Source: Escherichia coli (GTDB lineage Bacteria > Pseudomonadota > Gammaproteobacteria > Enterobacterales > Enterobacteriaceae). Taken from it: a stretch of DNA of 64,000 nt. The notes under the pieces are model-generated. The model was not told the DNA's origin. It saw nothing but the letters and a program-made list of their open reading frames with translations, and made no database searches. This document shows positions 1 through 50,350 of this stretch, piece after piece (position 1 is the first letter of the stretch; each line of letters starts with the position of its first letter). The stretch lies in assembly GCF_013315695.1 (NCBI RefSeq), contig NZ_CP054353.1; one strand, given 5' to 3'. Position numbers and translations under genes: made by a program.

Positions 1-2911
1 AAGAGGGACGCCAGCGCAACAGGCCATCCGGCTGCACCTGCGGCAACCAGCCAGTTATCTGCACACCGTTGCAGGCGAGATCAATCTCCATACTCTGCCC
101 TGGCTGGCGACAGGCAATGACTCTGTCGGCAAGTTGCTGCATCTCCTGACACTGCGTTTCCCAGAAAATTTCACCAAAGGCACCATACGGCAAATCACCT
201 GCCGCCCGGAATCGGCGGAACAAGCGTTCGGCATCATCCTGCTCAACCAGTGCATTTAATAACTGCTGGTTGATTTGATAACGACTAAGCCCTTCAAGAA
301 TAAAAGGTTCGGTGTCGGGAATTTCGCTGTCTTCGGTACGGAAGTTCACCTGCAAACGCATCTGGAAAAACGCCCGCACCGGATGCGCCCAGAATCGTTG
401 TAGCGTCTCCAGCGGCACGGTTTCCGGCAAGGTAAACGGCAGCGGCTGAACAAATTCAGAATGTGCTTTACCAGCCTGGCTGGCCGCAGGTAGCCACTCG
501 CGCGCATAGCTTTGTCGTTCGCCTGGCTGGTAGTTTTGTGGATCAAACGGCATTCGGGTATGGAGGCAAGTAAGATGCGCTTTTACCCTTGCCTCGCTTT
601 CATCACAGTTGAGCGCTTCATCTCCCGGTAGATAATGGCTTTGCCCGATGTAGTCGATCAGTTCCTGCACCAGTACCGACGGGAAACGTTCACTGTTATC
701 CTGAATGGAACGCCCGATATAGCTGATATAGAGTTTTTGCTGCGCGGAAATTAACGCTTCCAGGAACAGATAGCGGTCATCATCGCGACGGCTACGGTCG
801 CCACGCTTCGGTTTCTGGCTCATCAGGTCAAAGCCCAATGGCGCAAGCTGGCGTGGATAAACGCCGTCGTTCATTCCCAGCAGGCAAACCACTTTGAATG
901 GGATGGAACGCATTGGCATCAGAGTACAAATGTTAACCGGTCCGGCGAGAAAACGCTGGCTGATACGTTCCTGATCCAGGCGCTGTGCCAGTTCATCACG
1001 CAATAGTGACAGCGGCACCGCGTCGCCATACTGTGCACCTAAACCTTCGGCGATAATCGCCTGCCATTGTTGTTCGATCAGCGTCATCGCCGCTTCGGTT
1101 TCCGCATCCGGCAGGAAGAAGGCGTTGAGCATATCGCGACAAACCGGCAACCACTCTTCCAGCGGACGCTCCTGCGCCAGCCCGCGACGCCAGATGTTTA
1201 GCTGCATTAGCAGTGAAGCCAGATGCCCCACCAGTTCTGCAATTAAGCCGCTCGATTCATCATAAGGTAGAACCGATTGCCACTCGCCCTGCGCGCTCTC
1301 CATCGCGTAGCCCAGCAACATGCGCGTCAGGCCAAACCGCCAAGTGTGTTGACCGGTAGCGGGGAGTTCCAGCTCGCGAACGTTGTCGTCATCTATCCCC
1401 CAACGAATTCCGGACTCGTTGACCCACTGGCGTAAATAACGCAGCCCTTCTTCGGTGATGTCAAACCGCGCCGCCAGCACCGGCACATCCAGTAATGCCA
1501 GAACGTCCTCCGACACAAAGCGGCTGTCTGGCAACGATAACAGGCTGATAAACGCTTCAAGTACAGGATGCGACTGCCGCGCCCGACGGTCGGAAATGGC
1601 GTAAGGTAGGTAACGATCCGCAGGTGCGCTACCAAACACAGCCTGAATAAACGGACTGTAGCTGTCGATGTCGGCCACCATCACAATGATGTCGCGCGGA
1701 GTAAGTGTCGGATCTTCCTCCAGCATCGCCAGCAGGCGATCGTGTAAAACTTCAACTTCACGCTGTGGGCTATGGCAAACGTGGAAGGTGATACTGCTAT
1801 CCAGTGGATCAAGCGGGCGTTTGTTATCGCTACGGGAAAACTCTTCGATGTTCACACCAGCAACGGCGCGGTTTTCCAGTTCCAGAATGTCAGACTGAAT
1901 GTTATGCAGCAGGTTATCTGGCGTCACATCGACAAAAGCGTCCAGCTCCTGGCTGCTCTCCAGATCAGAAAGGAGATAAATGTAGTCGCGTCCAAGCTTG
2001 CCCCATGAGGCCAGCAGCGGGTTGCCGACATCCTGTTCACCATCGCTGTTAAAGAGCTGCCCGGCATTTTCGCTGTCGCGAAATAACGATAATTCGCGAT
2101 CTTCAAAACTGTGTCGGCGCTGGCGAGTCAGCAGTTTCGCCAGATAAGCAGGATCTTTAATGTCGCCCCAGTAATAACGGCAGGGGTTGGTAAACAGGAG
2201 ATGGATTTCAATATGTTTACCCAGCGCCTGTAGCGCCTGGAGATAAACAGGCGGTAACGCGGAAATACCGCATATAAAGACGCGCGAAGGTAGCCCCGGC
2301 GGGCAGGTCGTCGCGGACTCCAGCGTTTCGATAAAGCGCTGATAGAGATTGGCGCGGTGCCAGCGCGGTTGCCCGAGTTGATGGGTATATTCCACCAACG
2401 CCTTCCACAACGGCGCTTGCCAGGCCTGTGCTTCTCCCAACCCTTCTACCAGATGTCCTGTTTCCCACTGTGCCAGCCAGTCCGGACGATAGACCAGATA
2501 CTGGTCAAACAGGTCCGCCGCTTTTGAAGAAAGCTGGAACAGTTTTCGCTTGTCGCTATCGTCAGTCAGATAATGCCGCAACAGGGTAAAGTCTTCGCGC
2601 TCCAACAGTTGCGGCAGCAGAGTCATCAGTTTCCAGCTCATGCTCTGTTTGTTAAAGGCGCTCTCTTTGGGGATCTCCGGTAACACCCGGACGAACATAT
2701 CCCAGATAAAGCTCGCTGGCAGCGGAAAATCAATGTTTGCCGCAATACCAAACTTTTGCGACAGGGTCATTTGCAGCCACTGCGCCATACCGGTACTTTG
2801 CACCAGAATCATTTCTGGTTCGAAAGGATCGTCCAGCCGTTCGCGTTCGACGATAAACTCCATCAACGCTTCCAGCACGTCCAGACGATTGGAATGGTAG
2901 ACCCTTAACAT
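1..2911 (-). CDS. recC: RecBCD exonuclease V gamma subunit RecC, N-terminal ~970 codons (3-prime end lies beyond window start)
   Basis: Continuous minus-strand reading frame from ATG at 2909-2911 (translation MLRVYHSNRLDVLEALMEF...) running off the window edge; not in the ORF track because no stop lies inside the window; matches recalled RecC N-terminus and K-12 synteny (recC-ppdC-ygdB-ppdB-ppdA-thyA). Confidence 0.85.
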   Translation of the reverse strand, partial: MLRVYHSNRLDVLEALMEFIVERERLDDPFEPEMILVQSTGMAQWLQMTLSQKFGIAANIDFPLPASFIWDMFVRVLPEIPKESAFNKQSMSWKLMTLLPQLLEREDFTLLRHYLTDDSDKRKLFQLSSKAADLFDQYLVYRPDWLAQWETGHLVEGLGEAQAWQAPLWKALVEYTHQLGQPRWHRANLYQRFIETLESATTCPPGLPSRVFICGISALPPVYLQALQALGKHIEIHLLFTNPCRYYWGDIKDPAYLAKLLTRQRRHSFEDRELSLFRDSENAGQLFNSDGEQDVGNPLLASWGKLGRDYIYLLSDLESSQELDAFVDVTPDNLLHNIQSDILELENRAVAGVNIEEFSRSDNKRPLDPLDSSITFHVCHSPQREVEVLHDRLLAMLEEDPTLTPRDIIVMVADIDSYSPFIQAVFGSAPADRYLPYAISDRRARQSHPVLEAFISLLSLPDSRFVSEDVLALLDVPVLAARFDITEEGLRYLRQWVNESGIRWGIDDDNVRELELPATGQHTWRFGLTRMLLGYAMESAQGEWQSVLPYDESSGLIAELVGHLASLLMQLNIWRRGLAQERPLEEWLPVCRDMLNAFFLPDAETEAAMTLIEQQWQAIIAEGLGAQYGDAVPLSLLRDELAQRLDQERISQRFLAGPVNICTLMPMRSIPFKVVCLLGMNDGVYPRQLAPLGFDLMSQKPKRGDRSRRDDDRYLFLEALISAQQKLYISYIGRSIQDNSERFPSVLVQELIDYIGQSHYLPGDEALNCDESEARVKAHLTCLHTRMPFDPQNYQPGERQSYAREWLPAASQAGKAHSEFVQPLPFTLPETVPLETLQRFWAHPVRAFFQMRLQVNFRTEDSEIPDTEPFILEGLSRYQINQQLLNALVEQDDAERLFRRFRAAGDLPYGAFGEIFWETQCQEMQQLADRVIACRQPGQSMEIDLACNGVQITGWLPQVQPDGLLRWRPS

Positions 2912-2923
2912 AGCGGCTCCTGA

Positions 2924-3247
2924 CTACTGACGATTCGGGCAATGCAGGCGGGTCATCTCGCCTTCTCTGCCCCCGGGTGAAACTAGCGTAACGCTGATGC
3001 TGACACATCCCGCCTGCGATGTCTGCATTCGGTTGACCTGCCAGTTAGCAGGTGGCGAAATCGCGCGCAGTTGCGTTTGCTGCCAGCCATACCGCCAGAG
3101 CTGTTGGTACTGGTTTCTGCTGGCAAGACTGTTCATTAATGTTCGCTGGAAACCCGATAACGCAGTGACAATCATCACCATCAACACCATCGCCAACATT
3201 ACCTCCGGCAGGCTAAAGCCTTGTTGATTCTTCAGGGAAGCTGACAT
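2924..3247 (-). CDS. ppdC: prepilin-like protein PpdC
   Basis: Track ORF 2924..3334 trimmed to internal Met ([24 protein letters not shown]...), giving 107 aa with a type IV prepilin-like N-terminus (GFSLPE motif); synteny. Confidence 0.8.
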
Positions 3248-3639: not shown

Positions 3640-4199
3640 AGGTTGAATCCTGTCACGCTATAGCTGGCATTCACCACGGTTTGCGGTTCAGACTTACTGG
3701 CAGCACGCATATTAACCGTCAACACCGGCGAGAAGCCGCTGACATCCTGACGTACGACCTGAAAAGTGTCGATAATGATGGCATCCGGATTAGTGACTTT
3801 ATCCCAGCCCTTACCTTCACAGGATGTCGCACCGCGTAGCGTTTCCAGCACATGCTCCTTCAGACGAAATCCAATCTGGTCGGACTCTTTTACCGGTTCG
3901 CGATCCCAGATACCGTTACTGTTCGCATCCCACTGCACAATGACACAGTCACCCTGTCCGACAATTTCCAGCCCTTCGCCGGTACAGCTGCCATGACAAT
4001 AACCCGCCCTCTGGAGATGCTTCGCAACGGTAAATACCCGCAGCCAGATTTCATCTTCCAGCGCCAGCTTACGGGTGCTCGTTAAACTGTCACGCTGTAA
4101 CGCAGGCAGAAAGCGTGCAGCCCCCAGCAACAATACGCTACTGATCGCCATAGCAATCAACACTTCCAGCAGAGAAAAACCTTGCTCTTTTACAGGCAT
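3636..4199 (-). CDS. ppdB: prepilin-like protein PpdB
   Basis: Track ORF 3636..4439 trimmed to internal Met ([21 protein letters not shown]...), 187 aa, prepilin-like N-terminus; synteny. Confidence 0.8.
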
Positions 4200-38657: not shown

Positions 38658-39425
38658 GGTGATGCTGCCAACTTACTGATTTAGTGTATGATGGTGTTTT
38701 TGAGGTGCTCCAGTGGCTTCTGTTTCTATCAGCTGTCCCTCCTGTTCAGCTACTGACGGGGTGGTGCGTAACGGCAAAAGCACCGCCGGACATCAGCGCT
38801 ATCTCTGCTCTCACTGCCGTAAAACATGGCAACTGCAGTTCACTTACACCGCTTCTCAACCCGGTACGCACCAGAAAATCATTGATATGGCCATGAATGG
38901 CGTTGGATGCCGGGCAACAGCCCGCATTATGGGCGTTGGCCTCAACACGATTTTACGTCACTTAAAAAACTCAGGCCGCAGTCGGTAACCTCGCGCATAC
39001 AGCCGGGCAGTGACGTCATCGTCTGCGCGGAAATGGACGAACAGTGGGGCTATGTCGGGGCTAAATCGCGCCAGCGCTGGCTGTTTTACGCGTATGACAG
39101 GCTCCGGAAGACGGTTGTTGCGCACGTATTCGGTGAACGCACTATGGCGACGCTGGGGCGTCTTATGAGCCTGCTGTCACCCTTTGACGTGGTGATATGG
39201 ATGACGGATGGCTGGCCGCTGTATGAATCCCGCCTGAAGGGAAAGCTGCACGTAATCAGCAAGCGATATACGCAGCGAATTGAGCGGCATAACCTGAATC
39301 TGAGGCAGCACCTGGCACGGCTGGGACGGAAGTCGCTGTCGTTCTCAAAATCGGTGGAGCTGCATGACAAAGTCATCGGGCATTATCTGAACATAAAACA
39401 CTATCAATAAGTTGGAGTCATTACC
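38658..39425 (+). mobile_element. insAB: IS1 insertion sequence, copy A (768 bp; insA 38713-38988, insB 38907-39410)
   Basis: Terminal inverted repeats ggtgatgctgccaacttactgat ... atcaataagttggagtcattacc; InsA (91 aa) and overlapping InsB (167 aa) frames. Confidence 0.97.
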
Positions 39426-45162: not shown

Positions 45163-46608
45163 ATGAAAGGGAAATCTACATTAACTCTTCTGCTCGCTGG
45201 TATATTTTCGTACGGCACATGCCAGGCGGCAGGGGCAGAAGTGACGAGTGAATCTGTATTTAACATTCTTAATTCCACGGGGGCAGCAACTGATAAAAGT
45301 TATTTATCGTTAAATCCAGATAAGTATCCTAATTATCGTCTTCTGATTCACTCAGCCAAATTAAAAAATGAAATAAAGAGCCACTATACCAAAGACGAAA
45401 TTCAAGGATTGTTAACATTAACAGAAAATACACGAAAGTTAACGTTGACGGAGAAACCCTGGGGAACATTTATTCTTGCTTCTACTTTCGAAGATGACAA
45501 AACAGCGGCAGAAACCCACTATGATGCTGTCTGGCTGAGGGATAGTTTATGGGGCTATATGGCATTAGTATCAGATCAGGGAAATAGTGTAGCCGCAAAA
45601 AAGGTTCTGCTCACTCTGTGGGAATATATGTCTACGCCCGACCAGATTAAGCGGATGCAGGACGTCATTAGCAACCCAAAACGACTGGATGGTATTCCTG
45701 GGCAAATGAATGCTGTACATATCCGATTTGACAGCAACTCCCCCGTGATGGCAGATGTGCAGGAAGAAGGCAAGCCGCAGCTGTGGAACCATAAACAAAA
45801 TGATGCGTTAGGTCTTTATCTTGATCTCCTTATACAAGCAATCGACACTGGTACTATTAACGCTGAAGATTGGCAAAAAGGTGACCGATTAAAATCGGTT
45901 GCGCTGCTGATTGCTTATCTGGATAAAGCCAATTTCTATGTTATGGAAGATTCCGGAGCGTGGGAGGAAGATGCCCGATTAAACACATCTTCCGTTGCAC
46001 TGGTGACCTCTGGACTGGAACGTTTGTCAAACCTACTCTCGAAGAAAGACTCTGTTTTTGTCTCTGATTTACTACGCGAAGCTAAAGCCAATGAACTGGA
46101 TGAACCACTTTCAACAACGAGGTTGAACCACCTCATAGATAAAGGTTATGAAAGAATAACGCTACAGCTTGATTTAGGGGGAGAATCTCCTGGTTATCTG
46201 GAAAAAGATAAACATTACAGAGAAGCCGATGCGGCTTTACTTAATGTTATTTATCCTGCAAATCTTTCAAAGATAAACACCAGAAGAAAAGAGCAAGTTC
46301 TAAAAATAGTTAAAAAACTAGCAGGTCCGTATGGTATAAAAAGATACGAGAAGGATAATTATCAGTCGGCAAATTTTTGGTTCAATGATATTAAAACCGA
46401 TACCGATCAAAATTCACATGCGAAAAGAGAAATGAGCTTCATTCCATCAACAGAAGCAGAATGGTTTTTTGACTCATGGTATGCAAAATCAGCAGCAATT
46501 GTTTATAAAGAATCAAGAAAAGAAGAGTATTTGAATGACTCAGTGCAATTTATGAATAGATCATTGGCCCAAATAACAGGCGAGAAGGTAATGACTCCAA
46601 CTTATTGA
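45163..46608 (+). CDS. glycoside hydrolase family 15 (glucoamylase-like) lipoprotein, ygeQ-like; 3-prime end runs into IS1
   Basis: Long ORF with signal peptide/lipobox ([16 protein letters not shown]) and GH15-like motif (DAVWLRDS); the last ~7 codons and the stop are supplied by IS1 sequence starting at 46587, so the native C-terminus is missing; start codon uncertain (45121-45163). Confidence 0.6.
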
Positions 46609-47354
46609 TAGTGTTTTATGTTCAGATAATGCCCGATGACTTTGTCATGCAGCTCCACCGATTTTGAGAACGACAGCGACTTCCGTCCCAGCCGTGCCAG
46701 GTGCTGCCTCAGATTCAGGTTATGCCGCTCAATTCGCTGCGTATATCGCTTGCTGATTACGTGCAGCTTTCCCTTCAGGCGGGATTCATACAGCGGCCAG
46801 CCATCCGTCATCCATATCACCACGTCAAAGGGTGACAGCAGGCTCATAAGACGCCCCAGCGTCGCCATAGTGCGTTCACCGAATACGTGCGCAACAACCG
46901 TCTTCCGGAGCCTGTCATACGCGTAAAACAGCCAGCGCTGGCGCGATTTAGCCCCGACATAGCCCCACTGTTCGTCCATTTCCGCGCAGACGATGACGTC
47001 ACTGCCCGGCTGTATGCGCGAGGTTACCGACTGCGGCCTGAGTTTTTTAAGTGACGTAAAATCGTGTTGAGGCCAACGCCCATAATGCGGGCTGTTGCCC
47101 GGCATCCAACGCCATTCATGGCCATATCAATGATTTTCTGGTGCGTACCGGGTTGAGAAGCGGTGTAAGTGAACTGCAGTTGCCATGTTTTACGGCAGTG
47201 AGAGCAGAGATAGCGCTGATGTCCGGCGGTGCTTTTGCCGTTACGCACCACCCCGTCAGTAGCTGAACAGGAGGGACAGCTGATAGAAACAGAAGCCACT
47301 GGAGCACCTCAAAAACACCATCATACACTAAATCAGTAAGTTGGCAGCATCACC
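46587..47354 (-). mobile_element. insAB: IS1 insertion sequence, copy B (768 bp; insA 47024-47299, insB 46602-47105), inverted relative to copy A
   Basis: InsA and InsB ORFs identical in protein sequence to copy A but on the minus strand; terminal inverted repeats at 46587 and 47354. Confidence 0.97.
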
Positions 47355-47992
47355 CGATGGGGATGTTCCTGGCACTGGGTGAAATAGTCGGTCGTAAACT
47401 CTCTTCACACGATATTATTCGCGGGCTGCGTGTCGATGGCGTAGGGACAATGATAGGCGGAACGTTTAACAGCTTCCCCCACACGTCATTTTCACAAAAC
47501 GTTGGCCTGGTTAGCGTGACGCGCGTTCATAGCCGCTGGGTGTGTATTTCTTCGGGAATTATATTAATCCTGTTTGGCATGGTGCCAAAAATGGCGGTGC
47601 TGGTCGCCTCCATTCCGCAATTTGTGCTGGGCGGTGCTGGGCTGGTGATGTTCGGCATGGTACTGGCGACAGGGATTCGAATTCTGTCGCGCTGTAACTA
47701 CACCACCAACCGTTACAACCTCTATATTGTGGCGATCAGTCTCGGCGTTGGCATGACTCCGACGCTCTCTCACGATTTCTTTTCTAAGTTACCGGCCGTA
47801 CTGCAACCGTTGCTGCATAGCGGCATTATGCTCGCAACCCTTAGCGCCGTTGTGCTGAACGTCTTCTTTAATGGCTATCAGCATCATGCTGATCTGGTGA
47901 AGGAATCCGTCTCTGATAAAGATTTAAAAGTCAGGACAGTACGTATGTGGCTTCTGATGCGCAAGCTGAAGAAAAATGAGCATGGAGAATAA
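47355..47992 (+). pseudogene. ygfU: 3-prime fragment of nucleobase:cation symporter gene (ygfU/uacT-like), truncated by IS1
   Basis: Frame opens directly at the IS1 boundary and encodes only the C-terminal ~210 residues (several TM helices) of an NCS2-family permease; N-terminal part absent. Confidence 0.75.
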
Positions 47993-47993
47993 T

Positions 47994-48119
47994 ATGAATC
48001 TTTTAATGCGCGCTATATTCAGTCTGCTGTTGCTTTTTACTCTCTCTATTCCTGTCATTTCTGACTGTGTTGCAATGGCCATTGAAAGTCGCTTCAAATA
48101 TATGATGCTGCTTTTTTAA
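47994..48119 (+). CDS. candidate 41-aa hydrophobic small protein
   Basis: ATG 2 nt after the ygfU stop; MNLLMRAIFSLLLLFTLSIPVISDCVAMAIESRFKYMMLLF; not in the ORF track (below 60 aa). Speculative. Confidence 0.3.
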   Translation: MNLLMRAIFSLLLLFTLSIPVISDCVAMAIESRFKYMMLLF

Positions 48120-48241
48120 ATGGTTTTTACCTGTCGACATCCGCTCAAAACGGGCGGTTGTCGATAAACGCTCACTTGGTTAATCATTTCACTCTTCAAT
48201 TATCTATAATGATGAGTGATTAGAATTACATGTGAGAAATT

Positions 48242-48790
48242 ATGCAAACGGAACACGTCATTTTATTGAATGCACAGGGAGTTCCCACGGGTACGCTGGA
48301 AAAGTATGCCGCACACACGGCAGACACTCTCTTACATCTCGCGTTCTCCAGTTGGCTGTTTAATGCCAAAGGGCAATTATTAGTTACCCGCCGCGCCCTT
48401 AGCAAAAAAGCGTGGCCTGGCGTGTGGACTAACTCGGTTTGTGGGCACCCACAACTGGGAGAAAGCAACGAAGACGCGGTGATCCGCCGTTGCCGTTATG
48501 AGCTTGGCGTGGAAATTACGCCTCCTGAATCTATCTATCCTGACTTCTACTATCGCGCCACCGATCCGAATGGCATTGTGGAAAATGAAGTGTGTCCGGT
48601 ATTTGCCGCACGCACCACCAGTGCGTTACAGATCAACGATGATGAAGTGATGGATTATCAATGGTGTGATTTAGCAGATGTATTACACGGTATTGATGCC
48701 ACGCCGTGGGCGTTCAGTCCGTGGATGGTGATGCAGGCAGCCAATAGTGAAGCAAGAAAATTGTTGTCTGCTTTCGCGCAGCACAATTAA
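48242..48790 (+). CDS. idi: isopentenyl-diphosphate delta-isomerase (type I, Nudix-like)
   Basis: 182-aa ORF beginning [41 protein letters not shown]. Confidence 0.95.
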
Positions 48791-48816
48791 AAAACCCCGA
48801 CATTTGCCGGGGTTGT
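48789..48816 (-). terminator. rho-independent terminator of lysS (hairpin shared with the idi 3-prime end)
   Basis: Hairpin ccccg-acatttgc-cgggg preceded on the plus strand by aaaaa (U-tract for the minus-strand transcript). Confidence 0.7.
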
Positions 48817-48832
48817 GAGCATAACGTAATGC

Positions 48833-50350
48833 TTATTTCACCGGACGCATCGCCGGGAACAGAATAACGTCGCGGATGGTATGGCTGTTGGTGAACAGCA
48901 TTACCATACGGTCGATACCAATTCCCAGACCTGCTGTCGGCGGTAAGCCATGTTCCAGTGCGGTGACGTAATCTTCATCGTAGAACATCGCTTCGTCGTC
49001 ACCTGCATCTTTCGCGGCAACCTGATCCAGGAAGCGCTGCGCCTGATCTTCCGCGTCATTCAGTTCGCTAAAGCCGTTACCGATTTCACGACCACCGATA
49101 AAGAACTCAAAGCGGTCTGTGATTTCCGGGTTAACGTCGTTACGACGCGCCAGCGGAGAAACTTCTGCCGGATATTCAGTAATGAAGGTCGGCTGAATCA
49201 GATGTGCTTCTGCCACTTCTTCGAAGATCTCGGTAACGATACGGCCCAGACCCCAGCTCTTCTCAACGTGGATGCCGATAGATTCAGCAATCGCTTTCGC
49301 AGAGTCGAAGTTGTCCAGATCCGCCATGTCGGTTTCCGGGCGATATTTCTTGATCGCTTCACGCATGGTCAGTTTTTCGAACGGTTTACCGAAGTCCAGC
49401 GTTACGTCGCCGTAGGTCACTTCCGTCTTACCGAGAATATCCTGTGCCAGAGTACGGAACAGCGATTCGGTCAGCTCGATCAGATCTTTGTAATCTGCGT
49501 AAGCCATATAGAGTTCCATCATGGTGAACTCTGGGTTATGACGTACGGAAATACCTTCGTTACGGAAGTTACGGTTGATTTCGAATACACGCTCGAAGCC
49601 ACCGACCACCAGACGCTTGAGGTACAGTTCCGGCGCGATACGCAGGTACATGTCGAGATCCAGCGCGTTATGGTGAGTGATAAACGGACGCGCAGCGGCA
49701 CCGCCAGGGATCACCTGCATCATCGGCGTTTCAACTTCCATAAAGCCGCGGTTCACCATGAACTGGCGAATACCAGAGAGGATCTGCGAGCGCACTTTAA
49801 AGGTGTTGCGGGATTCATCGTTAGAGATGAGATCCAGATAACGCTGACGATAGCGCGCTTCCTGATCCTGCAAGCCGTGGAATTTATCCGGCAGCGGACG
49901 CAGTGCTTTGGTCAGCAGACGCAGCTCGGTACAGTGGATAGACAGTTCGCCGGTTTTGGTTTTGAACAGTTTACCTTTCGCGCCGAGGATGTCACCAAGG
50001 TCCCATTTTTTGAATTGATCGTTATAAACGCCTTCCGGCAGATCGTCACGGGCAACGTACAGCTGAATGCGACCGCCAACGTCCTGCAGGGTAACGAAAG
50101 ACGCTTTACCCATAATACGACGGGTCATCATGCGGCCAGCAACGGCGACTTCGATGTTCAGCGCTTCCAGTTCTTCGTTCTCTTTGCCGTCGAATTCTGC
50201 GTGCAATTGGTCAGAGGTATGATCGCGACGGAAATCGTTCGGGAAGGCAATCCCCTGCTCGCGCAGGTTCGCCAGCTTCTCACGACGCGTTTTCAGTTCA
50301 TTGTTAAGATCGACTACCGCGTCAGCGCCCTGTGCGTTTTGTTCAGACAT
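48833..50350 (-). CDS. lysS: lysyl-tRNA synthetase (constitutive)
   Basis: 505-aa class II aaRS ORF ([33 protein letters not shown]...). Confidence 0.97.

Follow-up and report, generated by a model that had tools for sequence, protein, structure and literature searches.

The short reading frame between truncated uacT and idi in an Escherichia coli genome is yqfG, a catalogued small membrane protein gene and a tentative partner of UacT-type permeases

What is encoded, if anything, by the short hydrophobic reading frame that lies between a remnant of uacT (ygfU) and idi in the stretch of Escherichia coli DNA analyzed here (64,000 nucleotides, hereafter the window)? A sequence-only reading of the window had placed a frame of 41 codons at 47994-48119 on the plus strand, had described it as unannotated, and had suggested that it could be a known gene of the yqf series at the corresponding K-12 position. 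The frame itself, running from ATG to TAA, was confirmed and the suggestion proved right, while the description as unannotated did not hold: the frame is yqfG (K-12 b4684), an already catalogued gene and not a new one. In K-12 MG1655, yqfG occupies 3032817-3032942, between uacT (b2888) and idi (b2889), and the order found in the window, 'uacT-yqfG-yqfH-idi-lysS, is the K-12 order, with yqfG co-directional with both uacT and idi. The product encoded in the window is identical to RefSeq WP_001050745.1, 'protein YqfG', from strains FDAARGOS_497 and MSB1_4I. When compared to K-12 YqfG (YP_002791254.1), 40 of 41 residues are identical and the length is equal, the single replacement being L3 here for F3 in K-12; two further changes relative to K-12 yqfG are both synonymous. 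Moreover, a megablast search with positions 47900-48260 returned matches in 5384 of 5426 complete E. coli genomes, and RefSeq carries the annotation 'yqfG: protein YqfG' beneath every full-length match (29/29) in a sample spread over E. coli. The closest context is that of E. coli MSB1_4I (NZ_LR898874.1), to which the window is 100% identical over 3.8 kb, and in whose record yqfG is annotated and flanked by a uacT pseudogene, yqfH and idi. In itself, yqfG is therefore a rediscovery, as the gene has long been part of the K-12 annotation and its protein has been used as a model substrate of the protease RseP; what the correct call does provide is a validation of such sequence-only calls. The explanation that we consider best, and very probably correct when taken as a whole, is that the frame is the real, catalogued yqfG, that it encodes a single-helix inner-membrane protein, that its translation is probably coupled to that of uacT, and, more tentatively, that its product is a partner of UacT.

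The translation of 47994-48119 (+) is MNLLMRAIFSLLLLFTLSIPVISDCVAMAIESRFKYMMLLF, followed by the stop codon (41 codons plus TAA). The stop codon of uacT (TAA) occupies 47990-47992, and a single T at 47993 separates it from the ATG of yqfG at 47994; the earlier statement that this ATG lies two bases after the ygfU stop is right as a coordinate offset, with one base in between. On reading the sequence, a Shine-Dalgarno-like GGAG is seen at 47984-47987 (+), 6 nt before the yqfG ATG and within the last codons of uacT, and homologous loci carry purine-rich GGAG, AGGA or GGGGG motifs at the equivalent place. The 1-nt spacing between stop and start, together with a Shine-Dalgarno sequence inside uacT, suggests that yqfG is probably made from the uacT mRNA, where its translation would be coupled to that of uacT. 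The program-made list of open reading frames contained a longer version of the protein, with 47 residues, beginning at an in-frame ATG at 47976. This start was dropped, as no comparable Shine-Dalgarno sequence precedes it and the 41-residue start is the one used in all annotations and experiments; the 41-residue start is also in agreement with the residue numbering of the experimental work (I8, L11-L13, F15) and with the aligned N-termini of the homologues.

The strong hydrophobicity noticed from the sequence was borne out, as YqfG has a GRAVY of 1.44 and a best 19-residue Kyte-Doolittle mean of 2.18, the latter being attained by just 0.9% of the 214 ATG-initiated frames of 30-60 residues in the window. 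The N-terminal two-thirds of the protein are strongly hydrophobic, and with its 41 residues YqfG falls among the small single-pass proteins, taken here as those with at most 50 residues and one bilayer-spanning segment. In addition, AlphaFold2 predicted for YqfG alone one continuous helix spanning residues 3-40, with a mean pLDDT of 86 from a 17-sequence alignment. The arginine near the N-terminus (R6) is nearly invariant, which fits an N-in orientation; R33 and K35 lie on the opposite side of the transmembrane segment, and the charge bias is by itself not decisive for the orientation. A lipoprotein reading based on Cys25 was considered and rejected, as the D at position -1 misfits a lipobox and most homologues have G, A, S or V in place of the Cys.

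The gene was reportedly discovered by Hemm et al. in 2008, who are said to have shown its epitope-tagged product in immunoblots. Most of what is established about the protein comes from the Akiyama laboratory, whose papers on RseP trace these small membrane proteins to Hemm et al. 2008 and describe YqfG as one of them, with function unknown (PMC4597795, PMC10470546), in line with the likeness to single-span small membrane proteins that had been proposed from the letters alone. According to the same papers, TMHMM predicts YqfG to be N-in/C-out, HA-MBP-tagged YqfG is integrally associated with the membrane, and the S2P intramembrane protease RseP cleaves it, presumably inside the transmembrane segment; in vivo, both plasmid-borne and chromosomal RseP cleaved the protein, and in vitro the purified protease did so (PMC4597795, PMC10470546). 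YqfG thereby belongs, together with YkgR, HokB, HokE, Blr and YshB, to the 'Class I' RseP substrates (PMC10470546), a class that is defined by the common protease and not by homology or shared function. The window itself holds nothing that bears on RseP, and the transmembrane residues that were probed for RseP cleavage in K-12 YqfG (I8-F15) are identical in the window allele. Regarding expression, yqfG is entered in a Ribo-seq study from 2023 among the 'previously known sORFs', with an acid-stress change that is unadjusted and non-significant and with no expression level, and the RiboReport supplement has no yqfG entry.

YqfG was chosen for the RseP work on account of its resemblance to signal peptides, which RseP also degrades (PMC4597795, PMC10470546), and it can be asked whether the protein is itself a precursor of that kind. 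In such a case, YqfG would insert N-in and be cut by signal peptidase I after A29 (between A-M-A and I-E-S-R-F), the conserved C-terminal peptide of 12 residues would be released into the periplasm, and RseP would clear the leftover helix. Several features that YqfG shares with the Sec-type and remnant signal peptides degraded by RseP speak for this proposal, namely its basic n-region (R6), its Leu-rich core and its small residues at -1 and -3: the former position is A or G in 17/17 homologues and the latter A or T in 16/17, and the best conserved block, [IL]-x-[SG]-R-F, follows right after. Nevertheless, the Raoultella homologue is the exception at -3, where it has D, the hydrophobic core of YqfG is, with 16-17 residues, long for a Sec signal peptide, the 'mature' part would have just those 12 residues, and the predicted helix continues unbroken through the putative cleavage region with a pLDDT of about 90. 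Moreover, in the absence of RseP, YqfG with an N-terminal tag builds up at the size expected for the full-length protein (PMC4597795, PMC10470546). Overall, we consider both the cleavage and the release of a periplasmic peptide to be very unlikely, and favor YqfG as a protein that stays in the membrane as a single helix.

To place the gene among its relatives, idi was used as an anchor to collect 80 loci, one genome per species, which were queried by tblastn with YqfG and with the C-terminus of UacT. Including two E. coli loci fetched earlier, uacT was found upstream of idi in 13 loci, belonging to E. coli, three other Escherichia lineages, E. albertii, E. whittamii, Citrobacter sp. MGH106, the C. 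amalonaticus group, Citrobacter sp. R56 and Klebsiella indica. In each of these 13 loci, a yqfG of 40-41 codons begins 1 nt past the uacT stop, while the other 69 idi-anchored loci showed neither a uacT match nor a significant YqfG-like frame. The 12 distinct yqfG sequences from Escherichia, Citrobacter and Klebsiella indica contain no indels, and their variable sites are distributed over the three codon positions as 22/11/35 (of 40). Pairwise dN/dS values range from 0.04 to 0.42, synonymous sites having reached saturation in the most distant pairs, and stops occur in both of the other frames. Conservation of the frame in related genomes, which had been put forward as a check on the sequence-only reading, is hence found. 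The strongest constraint is on P20 and on the C-terminal block I-E-S-R-F; among 17 homologues, P20, R33 and F34 never vary. As judged from these substitution patterns, purifying selection on yqfG at the protein level is shown across at least three genera.

Beyond the idi loci, a word-indexed protein search had left the family confined to Escherichia (plus Shigella), a picture that was discarded as an artefact of annotation and indexing once tblastn and HMM searches found other genera. A profile search against 1.84 billion cluster representatives retrieved 26 clusters at E <= 1e-3, which include proteins of 38-42 residues with identities down to about 25-35%. By cluster, the relatives come from the Klebsiella michiganensis/oxytoca/pasteurii group, K. 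aerogenes, Enterobacter, Citrobacter sp. Marseille-Q6884, Apirhabdus apintestini/Erwinia sp. HR93 and Salmonella enterica subsp. diarizonae. Those that have been named are almost always labelled 'hypothetical' or 'uncharacterised protein', and a Raoultella frame of the same kind (locus positions 4029-4145) was missed by the gene calls of its contig. The family is under-called in annotation outside E. coli, most of its non-Escherichia members being either unannotated or entered as 'hypothetical protein'. It was also observed that the YqfG-like frames of Raoultella, of the Citrobacter amalonaticus group and of Klebsiella indica were detected only by translated and HMM searches.

These comparisons also bear on the simplest alternative, namely that an AT-rich spacer between two genes happens by chance to be open in this frame and encodes nothing. 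The shortness of the frame could be taken in favor of such a reading, and so could the scans of YqfG and 16 homologues against NCBIfam and Pfam, which assigned no family and gave matches at noise level (E > 0.1). It is refuted, however, by a frame and a length that are kept without indels across genera at saturated synonymous divergence, by the clusters retrieved with the profile, and by the standing of yqfG as a curated K-12 gene whose protein has been studied experimentally; we give it practically no credence.

We then turn to the company that the gene keeps. In the eight distant homologues for which contigs were taken, the YqfG-like frame lies, wherever the upstream DNA was visible, behind a gene for a PF00860 permease (xanthine/uracil permease, NCS2) of 481-490 residues, and starts -1 to +4 nt relative to the permease stop, with a purine-rich Shine-Dalgarno sequence within the last permease codons. 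Four of these partner permeases are merely 41-43% identical to E. coli UacT. Typical further neighbors are ygfS/ygfT-like Fe-S flavoproteins and a molybdopterin oxidoreductase of 715-718 residues, and such neighbors are the setting of the formate-dependent, anaerobic urate pathway (PMC12507026). In several Klebsiella, Enterobacter and Apirhabdus loci, this oxidoreductase is encoded by the gene that follows the YqfG-like frame. It is often called in two pieces (139 + 559 residues), as would be expected if its gene contained a TGA for selenocysteine, compare formate dehydrogenase H, and this would fit the formate-linked urate pathway.

The permeases themselves carry a mark of the pairing. Every permease with a YqfG-like frame behind it ends in a tail of the form R-T-V/M-R-M-W-L-L-L/M-R-K, including those of the clade that is about 43% identical to UacT, and in the window the corresponding codons (RTVRMWLLMRK, 47933-47965, +) are part of the surviving uacT remnant. 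The tail is conserved as protein, its codons changing freely at third positions and between Arg codon families. For a search in the reverse direction, contigs were taken for four UacT homologues picked by identity alone. The Raoultella homologue (84%) is followed by the uncalled YqfG-like frame, 80 nt downstream and with its own Shine-Dalgarno sequence, while the homologues of Morganella (77%), Hafnia (70%) and Pandoraea (68%) have no YqfG-like frame downstream, and in these three the tail is absent. Among the best 120 UacT homologues, the tail (allowing F or L for W) was found only in those that are about 79% or more identical to UacT, and among the loci examined it occurs only in permeases that are followed by a YqfG-like frame. 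The pairing of tail and YqfG amounts to about 25 loci, which is a small sample. The literature searched contains no mention of a link between YqfG and UacT or of a module made of permease tail and YqfG.

Two observations on the junction between permease and small frame were made along the way. One is a predicted protein of 523 residues (P0134, from a Logan assembly, on a 3.3-kb contig), in which a UacT-like permease is in frame with a YqfG-like peptide (…RKLKKTSGMNKMSLLLRS…). Relative to a close homologue locus (2860-3009), it shows a one-base change in an A-run near the permease stop, and it may be either a real fusion or a homopolymer sequencing error. The other is that, in GC-rich genomes, a long open frame lies upstream of yqfG-like frames; together with the fused protein, this was considered as a hint of programmed frameshifting, and the idea was dropped.

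What would the pairing mean? The conserved gene pair and the co-occurring tail point to YqfG working with UacT-type permeases, and we tentatively propose it as their accessory or regulatory partner, which in E. coli would be a partner of the urate:H+ symporter UacT in the membrane, with a turnover that would be controlled by RseP. Small subunits of this kind accompany several transporters and complexes, namely KdpF with KdpABC, AcrZ with AcrB, CydX with CydAB, and MgtS/MgtR with MgtA. Subunits of the KdpF, CydX, AcrZ and MgtS type consist of one hydrophobic helix of about 30-50 residues, and YqfG is alike. KdpF and CydX are, moreover, encoded in the operon of their partner and conserved together with it, which is the genomic pattern of YqfG with UacT-type permeases: adjacent, co-directional and co-occurring genes were found in 13/13 idi-anchored loci, in 8/8 distant loci and in the one Raoultella locus. 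In contrast to these resemblances of form and arrangement, KdpF, AcrZ, CydX and MgtS/MgtR have no sequence similarity to YqfG.

A physical contact was modelled with AlphaFold2 as a fusion of UacT, a 20-residue Gly/Ser linker and YqfG, using 14 paired and 21 unpaired alignment rows and monomer weights, a topology which is sensible if the C-terminus of UacT and the N-terminus of YqfG are both cytoplasmic. The transporter body was predicted with pLDDT values mostly between 80 and 93, while the YqfG part reached 44-66, in comparison to the 86 of YqfG alone, and the tail stayed below 50. The model lends no support to docking, though it is a weak test. The want of a confident packing in this fusion is one of the points that favor a different view, in which YqfG is a genuine membrane protein unrelated to UacT that merely rides in the uacT transcript, with a role, for instance, in membrane homeostasis or as a competitor or decoy for RseP. 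Such a role would also be compatible with the experimental facts, which consist only of membrane association and cleavage by RseP and are common to many unrelated small membrane proteins, and with the UacT homologues at 65-78% identity that have no YqfG-like frame; adjacency alone, in addition, could be operon hitch-hiking. However, pure hitch-hiking does not predict that the pair is maintained in permease clades with a mutual identity of only about 43%, nor that the small frame co-occurs with a permease tail which is itself conserved at the protein level. A role independent of UacT is thus possible and must be taken seriously, though we regard it as somewhat doubtful.

Returning to YqfG as a permease partner, the proposal can be carried further, and more speculatively. 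YqfG-like peptides of 38-42 residues and the conserved, cytoplasmic tail (R-T-V/M-R-M-W/F/L-L-L-L/M-R-K) of a subset of urate-type NCS2 permeases could form a co-inherited module of the anaerobic, formate-dependent uric-acid cluster, in which YqfG would govern the assembly of UacT, its stability or its activity, and the lifetime of YqfG would be set by RseP. If this were true, a K-12 'y-gene' would gain a function, and gut-relevant urate uptake would acquire a layer of control by a small subunit. Bacterial urate uptake and anaerobic urate degradation are of current interest for host purine homeostasis, and the pairing across Escherichia, Citrobacter, Klebsiella, Enterobacter, Raoultella and Apirhabdus/Erwinia offers a cheap and concrete hypothesis for what YqfG does.

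Directly downstream of yqfG, a conserved stem-loop was found at 48132-48166 (+). The 86-nt stretch that contains it (48100-48185) has a minimum free energy of -25.2 kcal/mol, corresponding to z = -4.05 against shuffled sequences, and compensatory changes were seen in 6 of the 9 consensus pairs among 12 sequences from Escherichia, Citrobacter and K. indica. A U-tract is missing from both strands of the stem-loop, and an Rfam scan of 47300-48900 (E <= 1) yielded no hit that came close to a gathering score. The stem-loop probably forms the 3' end, or the terminator, of the uacT-yqfG transcript. On the opposite strand, the same DNA carries yqfH (48116-48187, -), an antisense frame of 23 residues annotated as 'protein YqfH', which covers the hairpin and whose stop codon overlaps that of yqfG. 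YqfH is a validated small protein encoded between uacT and idi (PMC6001520). Outside E. coli, yqfH is far less conserved than yqfG, with 61% identity in E. albertii and partial matches in other taxa, and the hairpin that it overlaps may account for such conservation as is seen. In addition, a constitutive promoter of idi, TTGTCG-18-AATCAT, has been listed between yqfG and idi (PMC3946193), and on our reading of the sequence the hexamer TTGTCG is part of the 3' arm of the hairpin.

This arrangement, with the uacT stop and the yqfG start tightly spaced, a conserved hairpin directly after the frame and the reported idi promoter just downstream (PMC3946193), could be taken in favor of a role for the act of translating yqfG and not for the peptide, with ribosomes moving past the uacT stop protecting the 3' end of the mRNA or modulating the hairpin and the read-through into idi. 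Such a proposal is nevertheless at odds with the selection acting on the amino-acid sequence, as seen in the dN/dS range and the three invariant residues, and with the fact that the peptide is kept although the downstream gene varies by taxon (idi, fdhF-like or ygeV-like). It is, in our estimation, highly improbable.

In the strain analyzed here, the surroundings of yqfG have been altered. What had been read as a remnant of ygfU is indeed one: the 3' part of uacT, the gene of the urate:H+ symporter, is present as a pseudogene at 47357-47992 (+), annotated in RefSeq as 'incomplete; missing N-terminus', and in blastn positions 47355-47992 of the window align to 812-1439 of intact uacT. An IS1 copy on the minus strand (46587-47354), which carries the annotation of an IS1A family transposase, interrupts the gene at 47354/47355 and leaves its 3' 636-638 nt. 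A second IS1 copy, inverted and 100% identical, lies at 38658-39425, and the gene order across the region is ETT2 fragment - IS1 - 'ygeV - xdhCBA - actS - tRNA-Gly - GH15 - IS1 - 'uacT - yqfG - idi. It was also noticed that uacT and ygeV are both truncated at IS1 ends. Relative to what we take to be the K-12 order, the segment from GH15 to ygeV is inverted between the two IS1 copies. With the 5' part of uacT and a ygfT fragment as probes, no match was found within the window, and the stretch from ygeW to ygfT, again on the presumed K-12 order, consequently appears to be missing. The full junction between IS1 and 'uacT is rare, being present in just 2 of 5,426 complete E. coli genomes.

As IS1 removed the 5' part of uacT together with its promoter, yqfG has probably lost its normal transcription. 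A promoter scan of the uacT remnant showed no sigma-70-like site on the plus strand upstream of yqfG, and two 'terminators' called on the plus strand inside uacT are within chance expectation. Judging from this arrangement, the intact yqfG of this strain is probably either expressed at a low level or functionally orphaned, and, should the partner model hold, it is probably also left without its partner. A different lesion is seen in FDAARGOS_497, whose yqfG region is 100% identical to that of the window: its uacT is a full-length but frameshifted pseudogene (locus positions 1155-2593). Given the frameshift there and the IS1 truncation here, uacT was inactivated independently in two strains that share one yqfG allele.
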